The notes under the pieces were generated by a model, which did no database searches, was not told the DNA's origin, and saw nothing but the letters and a program-made list of their open reading frames with translations. Positions 27,155 through 64,000 of a stretch of DNA of 64,000 nt are shown here, piece by piece. Position numbers and translations under genes: made by a program. Positions within the stretch are counted from its first letter, which is position 1. Each line of letters starts with the position of its first letter. Source of the DNA: Escherichia coli. Lineage in GTDB: Bacteria > Pseudomonadota > Gammaproteobacteria > Enterobacterales > Enterobacteriaceae. The DNA is taken from the NCBI RefSeq assembly GCF_003334305.1, contig NZ_QOWS01000014.1; one strand, given 5' to 3'.

Positions 27155-27334
27155 AGTTGTTATCCGTGTGCGTGTCCATAGATATGTTACATTTTGTTTC
27201 TATAACATCTTTGTACGATTTAACAACACGGTAACCATGTAAATCGGAGTTGAAACCAATATTTAACTTAACAATGTTAACTCGATCACTCCGTTAACCG
27301 AGTTTTCCTGCAATCTCATTTAATTCTGTCGGGC

Positions 27335-28496
<1,162 letters not shown>

Positions 28497-28497
<1 letters not shown>

Positions 28498-29354
28498 TAT
28501 TTCACCTCGCGGGAGAGTAGCTTCCACCAGGCGTCGATGGTCGGGTTTTTCGCCAGCATGACAAAGTCGATATCACCATGCACTTTGCGCCAGCGCGCCG
28601 CCAGCGCCATCATGCGCACCGAATCCAGACCGTAGTCGATCAGGTTGTCGTCATCGAACGGTTCATCGGACTCGTCCAGCAACGGCAGGATAACCTCACG
28701 CAGCGCCGCTTTGCTGGCGGGGACAGGTGCTGGCAGTAATTCTTCAGTCATCACCACCCGGCCAGACCGCCCGGCCACATATTTCAGCGACATCAAATGC
28801 TCGTCACGGCTGAAATCGGCCAGCGCATCCGCCACCATAAACGGTTTAATATCGCGCATAAATGCGTCGGTTGCGGTGGTCATACAGCCAATGTGGGCAT
28901 ATACCCCGGTAATAATCAGCTGGTTACGTCCACTCTCTTTGAGCATTTGCTCCAGCGGAGAACGATGAAACGCGCTGTAGCGCCACTTCACCAGCACCGT
29001 GTCGTCGGCATCTGGCGTCAGGCGATCCACCACCTTTTGCTGTTCCGGCGAACGGGTCAGGCCCGGCCCCCACATATCATTCAACAGCGCCCGATCTTCA
29101 TCGCTCTGCTCTTTCGGCTGGGCGGTGTAATAAACCGGGATATTGTGCTGTTTGCAGTAGTCGCGCAGCGCAGCAATATTCGCGATCACCTGCTCCATCA
29201 TCGGGCAGTTCTCGCCCCAGAAGCTGACAAAATAGTCCTGCATATCATGGATTAACAACGCGGCACGTTGCGGTTCAAAGGCCCAGTCAACTTTATTCTT
29301 AGGGATATCGTGAGACTCCGGCAGTGCGTAAGCCTGTAATTTTGGAATAGCCAT
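28497..29354 (-). CDS. entB: isochorismatase / aryl carrier protein EntB
   Basis: 285-aa ORF MAIPKLQAYALPESHDIPKNKVDW. Confidence 0.93.
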
Positions 29355-29367
29355 CGTGTTCTCTCCT

Positions 29368-30978
29368 TCAGGCTGATGCGCGTGACGCCAGCCACTGACG
29401 TAATTGTTTTTTATCGACTTTCCCGACCGCCGTCAGCGGAAGTGAATCTACACACTCCACGCGATCCGGTAATTTAAATTCGGCAATACCCTGTTCACGC
29501 AGGAAACGACGCACCTGCACCGCGCGCAGCGGCTCTTTTACCACCAGATAAGCGCAGCTTTTTTCGCCCATCAGCTCATCTTCCATGCTCACCAGTGCGG
29601 CGTAGATCACCGCCGGGTGGCGCAGCAGCAGGTTTTCGATCTCTTCGGCAGCGATCTTCTCACCGCCACGGTTGATCTGATCTTTCTCGCGCCCCTGCAC
29701 GGTGATGTACCCCTCTGGATCAATAGAGATCAGATCGCCGGAACAGTAAAAACCGTTGGCATCAAAGGCACTGGCATTGTGCTGCGGACTTTTGTAATAA
29801 CCGCGGAAGGTGTACGGCCCGCGCGTCATCAGGCGTCCAACTTCCCCTTGCGGCAGTGGATTTCCTTCAGCATCAGCAACCCATACTTCATCGTCCGGAC
29901 ACATTGGGTAACCCTGGGTATGGATAATTTTCTCCGCGCTATCATCAAGTCGGGTGTAGTTCACCAGCCCTTCCGCCATGCCAAACACCTGCTGCAACAG
30001 GCAGCCAATCTCAGCGGGAATACGCGCCGCAAGGGTGGCTGAAAGACGTGCGCCGCCGACCTGTAACAGTTTCAGCGAGGCAAGCTGCGCCCGGCTTTCA
30101 CCTTCGGTCAGCGCCTGCAACCACAGGCTGACTGCCGGTGGCACCAGCGCGGTGACGTTCACCTGATGTTTTTCAATCAATGGGAAGCAAAGCGTGGCGC
30201 TGGGATCGGCCGCCAGAACAACCGTTCCTCCGGCAAGAAAGACGCCCAGCGATCCCGGCGAACTCATGGCGTAGTTATGAGCCGCCGGGATCGCGCACAG
30301 GTAGCGTGTCTGTTGTGTGAACTGACAAATCTCGACGCTACGACGCACGCTGTAGTAGTAGTCGTTATGAGTGCGCGGGATCAGTTTCGGTGTGCCGGTG
30401 GTGCCGCCGGAAAGCTGGAAATAGGCCACTTCATCAGCAGGTGATGGCGTGGCAGTAAAATCCTCAGCCGGATGGTTAATCGCATCCTGCAAGTTATGCT
30501 CACCGCTGTCGTTGTGCAGTTGCACCACGCGAATGGAGGAATGTTCTGTGACGAAAGTATTGAGGAAATCATCCCCGCTAAACAGCGCATGTTGGCGATC
30601 GGCAATCAGCAATGCGGGTTCAATCTGGCTGGCATAGGCGTTCAGTTCACTACGCTGATGGCTGAACAGCGCCAGCACCGGCGCAACGCCCAGTTTCAGC
30701 AGCGCGAAAAAGGTAATATACAATTCAGCGACGTTACCCAGTTGTACCAGCGCGGTTTCACCAGGTTTAATGCCCTGACGGCGTAAACTACACGCGAGGT
30801 TATCCGCCGCCTGATTCAGCTCCCGGTAACTCAACTGTCGCTCGCCGTCGATAACCGCGATGCTGTCACTCGCAGCGTGGCGAGTCAGAATGTCGGTCAG
30901 CGGCAAATCCTGCCAGTAGCCTTTTTCCCGATAGCGACGGGCAAACTCTTCCGGCCAGCGGGTGAATGGAATGCTCAT
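29368..30978 (-). CDS. entE: 2,3-dihydroxybenzoate-AMP ligase EntE
   Basis: 536-aa adenylate-forming enzyme [25 protein letters not shown]. Confidence 0.93.
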
Positions 30979-30987
30979 CCTCGCTCC

Positions 30988-32163
30988 TTAATGCAATCCA
31001 AAAACGTTCAACATGGTAGAAAGTTTGACGCCTGTTTCGCGCCACTCACCCAACGGTGACGACGCAGGCACAATCCCCGCTCCGGCAAACAGACGCACCT
31101 GATTTTCCCGCAGCTTCGCGCAGCGGATGGTCACCACCCATTCGCCGTTACCTTCGCTGTCACACCAACCCACAATGCCGCCAAACAGTTCGCGGTCGAA
31201 TGGCTCCAGTTCAGCAATAACCTGGGTCGCGGCCTGATGCGGGAAACCGCTCAGCGCGGGGGTTGGATGCAGCAGACAGGCCAGAGTCAGTGCGTTTTCT
31301 TGCGAATTCGCTTTACCTTCAAAGGGAGTTGCGAGATGCCACAGCGTCGGCGTGGTAATCAATTGTGGAGAGGAGGGAACGTGTAACTCACTACTGCGTT
31401 CGCGCAGTACCTCTTTCATCGCCTGAGTCACCAGTTCATGTTCATGGCGATCTTTTTCTGACGCCAGCAGACGATTACCCGCTTCGCGATCGAGCACTTC
31501 ATCCGGCTGACGACGCGCGGAACCGGCTAACGGAATGGAGCTAAAACGCTCGCCGTCTTTACGTAGCAGCAGTTCCGGGCTGGCCCCCAGCAGGACGCCA
31601 CCATCAGCCAGCGGGACATGGAAGTTGTAACTAACCGGGTTTTGCGCAATCAACCGTTCCAGCAATACGCCACTATCAATGGCGGCGTCAGTGGTGATAT
31701 CAATCAATCGTGACAACACCACTTTGTCGACCTGCGGCGTGGCGGTAAGTGCGGCGGCGCGGGCAACCATCTGTTCAAACGTGGTTTGTTCAGGAATTGC
31801 CTGGCGTTCCACCACGTTCAGCGACTGGCTGCGGGTAAAACGGCGGGCTGAGGTCTGTTTTTCCTGGCGGGAGAACGACTGCCAGGATTCGGGAATATAC
31901 AGCGACGAAGGCTGACGTGGATCGAAGGGAATCGCCCCGACCATCACCGGATTTTTGATGCCCTGCGCTTTGGCATCGGCAAACAGCGCGGCGAGTTTTT
32001 GCTGGAAGGGACTGTCGGGCGAATCCCCGTTCACAGCCGGTTCATCGAAGCGGGCGAAACATCCTGACGTCGTAAAACTGCGGTACGGCGACATAAAGAA
32101 AAAGCGATTGGGCGCAAGTGTTGCCATGGTCTGCTGTACTTCCTCAGCCAGTGACGTATCCAT
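30988..32163 (-). CDS. entC: isochorismate synthase EntC
   Basis: ORF 30988..32175; start trimmed to the ATG giving [24 protein letters not shown] (391 aa). Confidence 0.92.
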
Positions 32164-32176
32164 ATCATCCTCCACA

Positions 32177-32214
32177 AAATGATAAAGGCTTTAATAATGA
32201 TTATCATTTATATT
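32177..32214. promoter_or_regulatory. Fur box(es) in the entC promoter (entC-fepB divergent region)
   Basis: aaatgataaaggctttaataatgattatcatttatatt contains the Fur consensus-like core ataatgattatcatt 14-50 bp upstream of entC. Confidence 0.75.
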
Positions 32215-32369
32215 TTCGGTCGCTAACCTAAAAGCAAACGCGCACTATGTCAACTCTTGAGGTAACGCAATCTGCAACTCGGGGTTGCATCTGGTTGTGG
32301 TTACAATAAAAATGAGAAGCATTATTGATGGATTCGCATAAGCGCAATGTGATGTCCTGCGCCGTTCTG

Positions 32370-32472
32370 CCCCCTCTCCCTTCCAGGGTGAGGGCTGGGG
32401 TGAGGGTTAATGTTCGCACCAGTGCTGGCTGTTCCCCTCACCCTAACCCTCTCCCCAAAGGGGCGAGGGGAC
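32370..32472. repeat. GC-rich palindromic intergenic repeat in the fepB leader (same family as 24955..25046)
   Basis: ccccctctcccttccagggtgagggctggggtgagggtta ... cccctcaccctaaccctctccccaaaggggcgaggggac; internal inverted repeats. Confidence 0.6.
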
Positions 32473-32537
32473 GGATTGTGCGCTTTGTCGAATTTGTCAT
32501 TACGCCCTTAACCTTATTAATAACAGGAAGCTGATTT

Positions 32538-33494
32538 GTGAGACTCGCCCCGCTCTACCGCAACGCCCTTCTATTAACAGGACTTTTACTTTCAGGAATA
32601 GCCGCAGTTCAGGCCGCTGACTGGCCGCGTCAGATTACTGACAGCCGTGGCACACATACACTGGAAAGCCAGCCGCAGCGTATTGTTTCCACCAGCGTCA
32701 CCCTGACCGGCTCACTGCTGGCGATTGATGCTCCGGTGATCGCCAGCGGCGCGACCACGCCGAATAACCGCGTCGCGGATGACCAGGGCTTTTTACGCCA
32801 GTGGAGCAAGGTGGCGAAAGAACGCAAACTGCAACGGCTCTATATCGGCGAACCGAGCGCCGAAGCCGTTGCCGCGCAAATGCCGGATCTGATTTTAATT
32901 AGCGCAACCGGCGGGGATTCGGCGCTGGCACTGTATGATCAGCTTTCCACCATCGCCCCGACATTAATCATCAATTACGACGACAAAAGCTGGCAGTCGC
33001 TGTTAACGCAGCTTGGCGAAATTACCGGGCATGAGAAACAAGCGGCAGAGCGGATTGCACAGTTTGATAAGCAACTGGCAGCGGCGAAAGAGCAAATCAA
33101 ATTACCGCCGCAGCCGGTCACTGCCATTGTCTATACCGCCGCTGCACACAGTGCCAATCTCTGGACGCCGGAATCAGCACAAGGGCAGATGCTGGAACAA
33201 CTCGGCTTTACGCTGGCGAAGTTGCCCGCAGGGTTAAACGCCAGCCAAAGCCAGGGCAAACGCCATGACATCATTCAGCTTGGTGGGGAAAATCTGGCTG
33301 CTGGGTTAAATGGCGAGTCACTATTCCTGTTCGCCGGTGATCAGAAAGATGCCGATGCGATTTATGCCAATCCACTGCTCGCGCACCTGCCCGCAGTACA
33401 AAACAAGCAGGTTTATGCGCTGGGAACCGAGACGTTCCGCCTGGATTACTACAGCGCCATGCAAGTGCTGGAACGACTTAAGGCGCTGTTTTAA
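32538..33494 (+). CDS. fepB: ferric enterobactin periplasmic binding protein FepB
   Basis: 318-aa ORF with GTG start, [26 protein letters not shown] signal peptide. Confidence 0.92.
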
Positions 33495-47589: not shown

Positions 47590-47710
47590 TTGACAACATC
47601 TGGTACGATTCGCCCGCAGCCATCACTGACCGCGGGCGAAAGTGTAAAGCAGGTGCCTTACCACTCTGACCTGACAACCGGATATGCGGGGATTGCTCCC
47701 CGCACAACGG

Positions 47711-47863
47711 CTACTTCTTCGGTTCGTAAGCGAGAACAGCCTTAAACTCAATATTACGTTCCTTTACGGTGAACTCACACAGCGAGTCTCCGACCAGAAG
47801 CGTAAATCCCAGTACCGTCAAACACAGCACTATGACTGCCACAAGGGCATATTTCGTCAGCAT
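47711..47863 (-). CDS. hokE: Hok-family type I toxin (copy 1)
   Basis: 50-aa [50 protein letters not shown]; the frame is open a further 33 codons upstream to an ATG at 47962 (MKPQEIF...). Confidence 0.85.
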
Positions 47864-47939
47864 GTTTATATTGCCTCCATGCGAAGAAGGGACTACCATC
47901 CGAGTTGTTGAGGCTCGGAGTGGCAGCCCCAGGATTGAT

Positions 47940-48010
47940 AGAAATATCTCCTGGGGCTTCATCTTTCCAGACCTCAGAGTTAACCTGAAACCGGAAAGCT
48001 TCAGGCACCC
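47940..48010 (+). ncRNA. candidate Sok-like antisense RNA, copy 1 (position inferred)
   Basis: placed antisense to the mok-like start/RBS region by analogy with hok/sok architecture; stem-loop cctgaaaccggaaagcttcagg on this strand; no promoter verified. Confidence 0.25.
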
Positions 48011-48213
48011 GCCGTTATCTTACCCTTCCTCAACAAAATAGCTGTTTATTTATACAGTGAATCCTGTTTCGGACTTCTGTCGGCAAAACTCATCATTGCT
48101 CTTAAAACGAAATCGCCCGCAGCCATCACTGACCGCGGGCGAAAGTGTAAAGCAGGTGCCTTACCATCCTGACCTGACAACCGGATATGCGGGGATTGCT
48201 CCCCGCACAACGG

Positions 48214-48366
48214 CTACTTCTTCGGTTCGTAAGCGAGAACAACCTTAAACTCAATATTACGTTCCTTTACGGTGAACTCACACAGCGAATCCCCGACCAG
48301 AAGCGTAAATCCCAGCACCGTTAAACACAGCACTATGACTGCCGCAAGGGCATATTTCGTCAGCAT
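48214..48366 (-). CDS. Hok-family type I toxin (copy 2)
   Basis: 50-aa [50 protein letters not shown]; 2 aa substitutions relative to copy 1 (V8A, A42V). Confidence 0.85.
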
Positions 48367-48466
48367 GTTTATATTGCCTCCATGCGAAGAAGGGACTACC
48401 ATCCAAATTGTTCAGGTTTGGGTAGGTAGCCCCAGGGTTGATAGAAATATCGTCCTGGGGCTTCAT
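48278..48466 (-). CDS. mok-like overlapping leader ORF (copy 2), out of frame with hok
   Basis: 62-codon ORF starting MKPQDD at the position homologous to the copy-1 MKPQ start, ending inside hok in another frame, as in the canonical mok/hok arrangement. Confidence 0.3.
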
Positions 48467-48514
48467 CTTTCCAGACCTCAGAGTAAACCTGAAACCGGAA
48501 AGCTTCAGGCACCC
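48444..48514 (+). ncRNA. candidate Sok-like antisense RNA, copy 2 (position inferred)
   Basis: homologous position to the copy-1 candidate. Confidence 0.2.
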
Positions 48515-48798
48515 GCAGTTATCTTACCCTTGCTTAGCAAAATAGCTGTTTATTTATACAGTAAGTCCTGTTTCGGACTTCTCACTCCCCATTTGATCAA
48601 CTGAAGCTGAACCCGTTTTTTTCTGCATGCCTCAATCGTCAAAATTCTTCGCCACCAGCCAGCCGTGCCATAACTTGTCACATTGCAAAAGTAGCCAAAT
48701 TGCTTCAGTCACCATCACCAAAAAAAGAAACATTCCAGAACTTCCGCATCTCGCCCAGCCGCTCCGACTTCTATACTGAATAGAAAACGCCAACTTAA

Positions 48799-50304: not shown

Positions 50305-50673
50305 ATGGATAAGCAATCACTGCACGAAACGGCGAAACGCCTGGCCCTTGAGTTACACTTTGTCGAGCTTTGCTGGCCTTTTGGCCCGGAGTTCGATGTT
50401 TTTAAAATTGGCGGCAAAATTTTTATGCTGTCGTCGAAGCTGCGCGGCGTCCCCTTTATCAATCTGAAGTCCGATCCACAAAAATCCCTGTTAAATCAGC
50501 AGATATACCCGAGCATTAAGCCAGGGTATCACATGAATAAAAAGCACTGGATTTCGGTGTATCCCGGCGAGGAAATCTCCGAAGCGTTACTTCGCGATCT
50601 GATCAACGATTCGTGGAATCTGGTGGTTGATGGTCTGGCTAAACGCGATCAAAAAAGAGTGCGTCCAGGCTAA
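50305..50673 (+). CDS. ybdF: uncharacterised protein YbdF (DUF419 family)
   Basis: ORF 50185..50673; start trimmed to ATG at 50305 with AAAGGAA RBS ([21 protein letters not shown], 122 aa). Confidence 0.85.
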
Positions 50674-50766
50674 AGCGGAAATCTATAGCGCATTTTTCTC
50701 GCTTACCATTTCTCGTTGAACCTTGTAATCTGCTGGCACGCAAAATTACTTTCACATGGAGTCTTT

Positions 50767-51420
50767 ATGGATATCATTTCTGTCGCCTTAAAGCGTCATT
50801 CCACTAAGGCATTTGATGCCAGTAAAAAACTTACCCCGGAACAGGCCGAGCAGATCAAAACTCTCCTGCAATACAGCCCATCCAGCACCAACTCCTAGCC
50901 GTGGCATTTTATTGTTGCCAGCACGGAAGAAGGTAAAGCGCGTGTTGCCAAATCCGCTGCCGGTAATTATGTGTTCAACGAACGTAAAATACTTGATGCC
51001 TCGCACGTCGTGGTGTTCTGTGCAAAAACCGCGATGGACGATGCCTGGCTGAAGCTGGTTGTTGACCAGGAAGATGCTGATGGCCGCTTTGCCACGCCGG
51101 AAGCGAAAGCCGCGAACGATAAAGGTCGCAAGTTCTTCGCTGATATGCACCGTAAAGATCTGCATGATGATGCAGAGTGGATGGCAAAACAGGTTTATCT
51201 CAACGTCGGTAACTTCCTGCTCGGCGTGGCGGCGCTGGGTCTGGACGCGGTACCCATCGAAGGTTTTGACGCCGCCATCCTCGATGCAGAATTTGGTCTG
51301 AAAGAGAAAGGCTACACCAGTCTGGTGGTTGTTCCGGTAGGTCATCACAGCGTTGAAGATTTTAACGCTACGCTGCCGAAATCACGTCTGCCGCAAAACA
51401 TCACCTTAACCGAAGTGTAA
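50767..51420 (+). pseudogene. nfsB: oxygen-insensitive NAD(P)H nitroreductase NfsB with in-frame amber codon at codon 44
   Basis: a 218-codon frame otherwise colinear with NfsB ([43 protein letters not shown] - TAG - [16 protein letters not shown]...NITLTEV); TAG at 50896..50898 where Gln (CAG) is expected. Confidence 0.85.
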
Positions 51421-51479
51421 TGCTCTCTTGCCGGGCATCTGCCCGGCTATTTCCCCTCAGATTCTCCTGATTTGCATAA

Positions 51480-63467: not shown

Positions 63468-64000
63468 ATGTCAACCGGATTACGTTTCACACTGGAAGTG
63501 GACGGCCTGCCGCCGGATGCTTTTGCGGTGGTTTCCTTTCATCTGAACCAGTCACTCTCTTCGCTCTTTTCCCTCGATCTCTCCCTGGTCAGCCAGCAGT
63601 TTCTCTCCCTTGAATTTGCGCAGGTGCTGGACAAAATGGCCTACCTGACGATATGGCAGGGCGATGAAGTACAGCGCCGGGTGAAAGGCGTGGTGACCTG
63701 GTTTGAACTCGGGGAGAACGACAAAAACCAGATGCTGTACAGCATGAAGGTGCACCCGCCGCTGTGGCGTGCCGGTCTGCGCCAGAACTTCCGTATCTTC
63801 CAGAACGAGGACATCAAAAGCATCCTCGGCACGATGTTGCAGGAAAACGGGGTGACCGAATGGAGTCCGCTGTTCAGCGAGCCGCATCCTTCCCGTGAGT
63901 TTTGTGTCCAGTACGGTGAGACTGATTACGATTTCCTGTGCCGGATGGCGGCGGAGGAAGGCATCTTCTTTTATGAGGAGCACGCGCAAAAAAGTACCGA
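63468..64000 (+). CDS. vgrG: VgrG-like type VI secretion spike protein, N-terminal part only (runs off the window)
   Basis: ATG at 63468 preceded by GGAGG RBS; translation MSTGLRFTLEVDGLPPDAFAVVSFHLNQSLSSLFSLDLSLVSQQFLSLEFAQVLDK... is a typical VgrG N-terminus; not on the ORF track because there is no stop within the window. Confidence 0.75.
   Translation, partial: MSTGLRFTLEVDGLPPDAFAVVSFHLNQSLSSLFSLDLSLVSQQFLSLEFAQVLDKMAYLTIWQGDEVQRRVKGVVTWFELGENDKNQMLYSMKVHPPLWRAGLRQNFRIFQNEDIKSILGTMLQENGVTEWSPLFSEPHPSREFCVQYGETDYDFLCRMAAEEGIFFYEEHAQKST

Follow-up and report, generated by a model that had tools for sequence, protein, structure and literature searches.

A recent premature amber codon in nfsB of an Escherichia coli clone from an orangutan, accompanied by a substitution in NfsA and probably a second step of nitrofuran resistance

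Introduction

Nitrofurans are prodrugs that are activated by the oxygen-insensitive nitroreductases NfsA, the major enzyme, and NfsB, the minor one, which turn compounds such as nitrofurantoin, nitrofurazone and furazolidone into toxic products by reduction. Resistance is acquired stepwise by loss of function, usually of nfsA and then of nfsB (PMC8767348; bioRxiv 10.1101/2024.01.25.577238). In a UK validation set, mutants in nfsB only were susceptible (MIC 4-32 mg/L) and mutants in nfsA only were borderline (16-64 mg/L, with one at 256); double mutants are resistant, whereas the loss of nfsB alone confers little resistance, and an isolate with an interrupted nfsA that also carried NfsB W46R displayed a MIC above 512 mg/L (Wan et al., 2021; PMC8767348). 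Both genes are non-essential and weakly constrained (PMC8767348), and loss-of-function alleles of nfsA or nfsB are present in 5.4% of the urinary isolates susceptible to nitrofurantoin, a condition termed 'pre-resistant' (bioRxiv 10.1101/2024.01.25.577238).

Several described alleles are close to the one reported in this work, an amber codon in place of Gln44 of NfsB (Q44*). An NfsB truncated at Glu54 (Sorlozano-Puerto et al., 2020; PMC7558542) and the 'nonsense' class of nfsB alleles (PMC8767348) are, like Q44*, single-base nonsense changes leaving an N-terminal fragment, with the same expected loss of the minor nitrofuran-activating reductase and likewise paired with a change in nfsA. They differ in position and source, as they lie at other codons and come from human urinary isolates, whereas Q44* lies at codon 44 of an orangutan commensal and is known from the genotype alone. 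The same codon is affected in NfsB Gln44His, which was scored as deleterious and came from an isolate that was less susceptible to nitrofurantoin and had changes in NfsA as well (PMC7558542); however, Gln44His is a substitution in a full-length protein, while in Q44* the loss is complete irrespective of the role of Gln44. The null phenotype can also be reached at this locus in another way, by the interruption of nfsB with IS1 or IS5, as in strains ST540 and ETEC4085; these are insertions, whereas Q44* is a point mutation that a single base change can revert. Regarding nfsA, the change G154E is resistance-associated, with a MIC of 64 mg/L for the single mutant, and G154W has also been seen (Wan et al., 2021; PMC8767348); Gly154Glu was furthermore scored as deleterious (Sorlozano-Puerto et al., 2020; PMC7558542). 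The strain studied here has G154R at this same residue, with an effect that would be comparable. Neither Q44* (or Gln44stop) of NfsB in the searchable literature, nor G154R of NfsA in the searchable literature and supplements, was found under its name.

In this work, we characterized the nfsB locus within a 64-kb stretch of E. coli DNA (hereafter the window), for which an initial annotation made from the sequence alone had proposed an amber interruption of the gene. We compared the locus with complete genomes and wider public data, and extended the analysis to the companion loci nfsA and ribE and to the genes of potential suppressor tRNAs. As the companion loci lie beyond the window, they were read from the chromosome of strain A7 (NZ_CP028767.1), which belongs to the same clone.

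Results

The nfsB frame is intact except for one amber codon

The nfsB frame of the window starts with ATG at 50767, meets an in-frame TAG at 50896-50898 and ends with TAA at 51418-51420; its translation begins with MDIIS, ends with TLTEV* and has a stop as codon 44, in exact agreement with the coordinates and description given by the initial annotation (Table 1). In comparison with the intact gene of E. coli HS, 1 of 654 nucleotides differs, namely T instead of C at 50896, which converts CAG into TAG. Over the whole 654 nt compared, no secondary decay was found inside nfsB, and the 93 nt upstream are unchanged, consistent with the proposal of a single C-to-T transition with no other damage; the only other difference from HS near the gene lies 2 nt beyond the stop codon. 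An uninterrupted frame for the 217-aa NfsB is absent, so that the list of open reading frames shows the gene in two parts, a short N-terminal ORF reaching 50898 and a GTG ORF at 50971-51420, and the locus constitutes an nfsB pseudogene.

The identity of the gene is supported by its context and by its protein. A 951-bp query around the frame matched nfsB, between ybdF and ybdG, in 5,404 of 5,426 complete E. coli genomes, and the chromosomal order ybdK-ybdJ-ybdF-nfsB-ybdG-pheP is kept, according to the ORFs of the window and the annotations of A7 and HS. With Gln44 restored, the protein scored 383.4 bits against the NCBIfam equivalog NF008275 (curated cutoff of 227 bits), with residues 1-217 aligned on model positions 1-217, and a phmmer comparison of the repaired 217-aa NfsB with the PDB chains of E. 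coli NfsB (1DS7, 1ICR and others) likewise covered residues 1-217 (E=1.9e-142). Since the repaired protein is full-length in both comparisons, the 174 residues downstream of the amber codon belong to normal NfsB, which the stop interrupts; the alternative that this protein naturally lacks those residues is therefore ruled out.

Table 1. Coordinates of the features discussed, given as window positions unless an accession is stated.
Feature	Position	Strand	Evidence or remark
ybdF-nfsB intergenic region (nfsB promoter and leader), unchanged	50674..50766	+	93 nt, same as E. coli HS
nfsB (oxygen-insensitive NAD(P)H nitroreductase) frame, pseudogene by internal stop	50767..51420	+	Sequence, PGAP, NF008275, PDB 1DS7
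43-aa N-terminal fragment, coding part	50767..50895	+	Sole product expected from normal termination
Premature amber TAG, codon 44, wild type Gln	50896..50898	+	Mutated base 50896 C->T; next base C (TAG-C)
Residual in-frame GTG ORF, 149 aa, NfsB residues 69-217	50971..51420	+	ORF list
GC-rich inverted repeat GCCGGGC-ATCT-GCCCGGC, putative terminator	51430..51447	+	Read from sequence, directly 3' of nfsB stop
nfsA, G460A (GGG->AGG), G154R	NZ_CP028767.1 1675209-1675931 (L003:20210-20932), outside window		A7 vs K-12 NfsA

As for the flanking signals, a scan for sigma-70 consensus promoters around nfsB gave no match and thus does not define the position of the promoter, and the inverted repeat that follows the gene was not called in a terminator scan, its T-run being too short. 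In the neighbouring ybdF (window 50305-50673), which is annotated as intact (WP_000360936.1), the protein differs from that of HS by P18H (50357) and E45K (50437), in addition to several synonymous sites in the gene.

Translation of the interrupted frame stops at codon 44, in line with the proposal that a 43-aa fragment is the leftover product. This product covers only positions 1-43 of the 217 of NF008275, and presumably lacks most of the FMN-binding and dimer-forming elements. The GTG ORF matches model positions 70-217; no Shine-Dalgarno-like sequence was found upstream of it. Neither its expression nor its function should be expected, and the corresponding polypeptide, devoid of the N-terminal FMN-phosphate ligands, would be inactive.

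The amber codon is present in separate assemblies of the clone

The window and E. coli strain A7, which comes from orangutan faeces in the USA (NZ_CP028767.1), represent one clone: the window is the reverse complement of approximately positions 1378892-1442891 of that record, in which PGAP already labels nfsB a pseudogene ("internal stop"). The two sequences are separate assemblies, and TAG is present in both. Furthermore, it was found in the draft GCA_002476345.1, which is 100% identical to the window over 6.1 kb in a contig seen in 4 samples, and in the Logan assembly of read set SRR1815431, which was made independently of the depositors and is 100% identical over 5.4 kb in a contig seen in 5 samples.

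One could argue that the true base is C, with nfsB intact and the T a sequencing or assembly error, and the RefSeq A7 record is indeed not error-free: relative to the window, the region at 27230-32771 (entH/entB/entE/entC/fepB) displays clustered multi-base indels (1-18 bp) together with 4 SNPs, and fepB, entE and entH are called frameshifted in that record. As all three are full-length ORFs in the window, the window is the cleaner assembly of the clone, and the 'pseudogenes' of the enterobactin cluster in RefSeq A7 look like assembly errors of that record. The error class visible in RefSeq A7 consists, however, of indels and not of substitutions, and T is found at 50896 in four assemblies or read-derived contigs, namely the window, RefSeq A7, the draft and the SRR1815431 assembly, the identity extending over 5.4-6.1 kb. 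An assembly error at this position was therefore rejected, and the probability that the base call is wrong is very small.

Some other differences and features of these assemblies were observed. The hlyE gene is annotated as frameshifted in RefSeq A7 (NZ_CP028767.1 2081640-2082550; L024:41641-42551), which, given the indel errors of the ent cluster, may be an assembly artefact as well. The interval between entD and ybdK contains two tandem copies of the hokE toxin-antitoxin region with about 95% identity (window 47610-48078 and 48113-48582), and here the window departs from RefSeq A7 only by a TC/CT swap at 47664-47665, in the first copy. Finally, there are 4 mismatches to RefSeq A7 in the last 18 bases of the window (63983-64000), upstream of the cusS/vgrG side, and a region of divergence between the two assemblies may have its edge here.

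Suppression and readthrough of the amber codon

A stop codon may be harmless to the gene if it is decoded, either by a suppressor tRNA or by efficient readthrough, with Gln inserted at codon 44 and nfsB still functional. A TAG followed by C is a weak termination context, and in suppressor-free E. coli the usual reader of UAG is the near-cognate tRNA-Gln; since the lost codon is itself a Gln codon, any readthrough product would be exact wild-type NfsB. Conversely, natural UAG readthrough is typically about 1% or less, far below wild-type expression. The check for amber suppressors such as glnV/supE suggested by the initial annotation was carried out on the A7 chromosome with a negative outcome: the anticodons are CTG in glnV/glnX, TTG in glnU/glnW and GTA in tyrT/tyrV, and a CUA anticodon is absent from all of these tRNA-Gln and tRNA-Tyr genes, to which the search was confined. 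No tRNA gene was found in the 64-kb window. Suppression of the supE and supF type was thus rejected for glnV/glnX and tyrT/tyrV, whose anticodons are wild type, and we consider it extremely improbable that nfsB is still functional by decoding of the amber codon.

A related proposal is that Q44* acts as a leaky hypomorph, in which readthrough by tRNA-Gln at TAG-C would supply a low level of wild-type NfsB, as a tuned and revertible 'dimmer' state. If true, such a state might explain the recurrence of CAG->TAG at codon 44 in many lineages that is described below, but we regard it as very improbable. Apart from trace readthrough, Q44* is almost certainly a genuine null allele.

Q44* is recent in the A7 clone and recurrent in the species

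A 61-nt probe centred on the mutation had a perfect match in 1 of the 5,397 complete E. coli genomes carrying the site, that of A7. Relatives 99.9% identical over 24 kb (A28, TUM1887, H15 and DETEC-E601) are devoid of Q44*, so the mutation can be placed on a short terminal branch. The lesion had been attributed to a 'recent selective or laboratory event'; its recent origin is well supported by these results, whereas positive support for the laboratory part was lacking.

In public sequence data at large, 87 contigs have a call for exactly the 43-aa product. All ten loci retrieved with this product have TAG at codon 44, and their nfsB sequences are 0, 0, 1, 1, 8, 10, 12, 13, 14 and 15 nt away from that of the window, with flanks diverging by up to 3%. 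The change CAG->TAG at codon 44 is therefore found in at least 8 distinct nfsB backgrounds, which constitutes homoplasy and indicates that the C->T transition arose repeatedly in unrelated lineages.

Of the 60 one-step nonsense changes possible in nfsB, 13 are transitions, and the products of the other transitions considered were called on similar numbers of contigs (Q35* on 49, W46* on 190, W94* on 52, Q101* on 35, W138* on 267 and Q142* on 17). An exceptional hotspot at codon 44 was accordingly rejected, the 87 contigs of Q44* being mid-range within 17-267. A hotspot due to 5-methylcytosine at Dcm sites was also rejected as the origin of the recurrence, as the mutated C lies in TCC-CAG-CCG and not in CCWGG, and the Dcm sites of nfsB are at nt 278 and 300. 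Given that the frequency of Q44* is ordinary, its recurrence alone is no proof of selection at codon 44, and among the numerous null alleles that make up the nfsB spectrum Q44* is nothing unusual. Within the same spectrum, IS1 (IS1A) or IS5 splits nfsB in ST540 and ETEC4085 (NZ_CP007390.1 and NZ_CP122634.1), strains that are 99.8% identical to the window over the 951-bp nfsB region.

The companion loci nfsA and ribE

The initial annotation had suggested inspecting nfsA and ribE for companion resistance mutations, and the inspection was positive for nfsA. The gene is annotated as intact in A7, with 240 aa, but its product is set apart from NfsA of K-12 by G154R, a substitution of the same glycine as in the known resistance change G154E. 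Of 5,215 complete genomes, A7 alone gave a perfect match to a 61-nt nfsA probe, a count that refers to the haplotype, as the probe also spans a synonymous site. The exact NfsA G154R protein is present on 17 public contigs. One of these derives from read set SRR1815431, where the flanks are the same as in A7 and which also carries nfsB Q44*; another (L016) has G154R in a second background, with flanks different at 18 of 3,723 positions, which makes G154R recurrent as well. G154R lowers the score against the NfsA equivalog model by 4.5 bits. By extrapolation from G154E and G154W, the substitution may inactivate NfsA.

Conversely, no lesion was found in ribE, an optional third determinant for which an in-frame deletion or a substitution would be the companion change. 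The gene is annotated as ribH in A7 and encodes the wild-type RibE/RibH protein WP_001021161.1, which is the RibE of the susceptible strain ATCC 25922 (Wan et al., 2021; PMC8767348). With regard to a two-step genotype, A7 thus carries the Q44* lesion in nfsB and a full-length nfsA with G154R.

Discussion

Taken together, our results make it quite probable that Q44* is a recent and genuine loss-of-function allele of nfsB that represents the second step of a two-step nitrofuran resistance chosen by drug exposure. According to the proposed course of events, nfsA would have been altered first, by the G154R change that is private to the A7 lineage among complete genomes, and the nfsB stop would have followed, giving the two-step genotype. 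By the C->T transition, Gln44 (CAG) became an amber codon, which ends translation after 43 of the 217 residues and prevents the formation of an active FMN-dependent NfsB dimer. Exposure of the host or of its surroundings to nitrofurans would be the selective agent, and from the genotype the strain is predicted to be phenotypically resistant. In particular, resistance to nitrofurantoin is expected should G154R inactivate NfsA; otherwise, the strain would correspond to a 'pre-resistant' one.

The main alternative is neutral decay, in which a dispensable nfsB acquired a stop by chance on the terminal branch, unrelated to nitrofurans, with NfsA G154R as a harmless polymorphism. The weak constraint on these non-essential genes and the loss-of-function alleles found among susceptible urinary isolates, both referred to in the Introduction (PMC8767348; bioRxiv 10.1101/2024.01.25.577238), agree with such decay, as do the similar counts in public data of all the transition nonsense products tested in nfsB, and the host, an animal from a zoo or from the wild for which no history of drug use is on record. 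Conversely, two rare changes, neither of which is shared by any other of more than 5,200 complete genomes, coincide in one pathway and in one clone, and the change in nfsA affects a residue known for resistance and recurs in another background. The finding of two private changes in both genes of the pathway, one of them at a known residue, favours selection, and we thus lean moderately towards selection by nitrofuran exposure over coincidence, neutral decay being an unlikely explanation for the whole.

A laboratory origin has also to be considered, in which the stop would have been acquired by a reference stock while it was stored or passaged, and not in the animal. ECOR7 is a phylogroup A strain from an orangutan in the USA (PMC6001069), and A7 may be this pre-1984 reference isolate; host and country are compatible, and this identity is more probable than the hypomorph reading of Q44*. 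If A7 is the widely distributed ECOR7, all sequenced copies could share one stock, which would explain the identical contigs in several samples. Nevertheless, the identity of A7 with ECOR7 is putative, no ordinary laboratory condition selects for the loss of nfsB, and storage would hardly account for a second hit in the pathway, nfsA G154R, which makes the laboratory origin a very improbable one. In the literature searched, neither nitrofuran data for ECOR7 nor a resistance phenotype under CP028767 or strain A7 was found. Should A7 be ECOR7, and with Q44* as the second step of nitrofuran resistance, a complete two-step resistance genotype would have been present in a zoo-animal commensal of the pre-1984 era.

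Lesions of the type of Q44* are known, nfsB is well understood, and the allele is both flagged in RefSeq already and present in many public assemblies; what our analysis adds is modest, namely its pairing with nfsA G154R and the independent origins of Q44* in several lineages. The understanding of the mechanism of resistance is unchanged, and the finding contributes a small data point on nitrofuran-resistance genotypes in animal commensals. In practical terms, the strain and its derived stocks are predicted to be devoid of NfsB, with their susceptibility to nitrofurantoin and nitrofurazone affected, particularly if NfsA G154R is inactive; the loss of NfsB would also affect the activation of nitroaromatic prodrugs (CB1954 and metronidazole-type compounds) in NfsB-based assays, as well as the use of this strain as a 'wild-type' reference.
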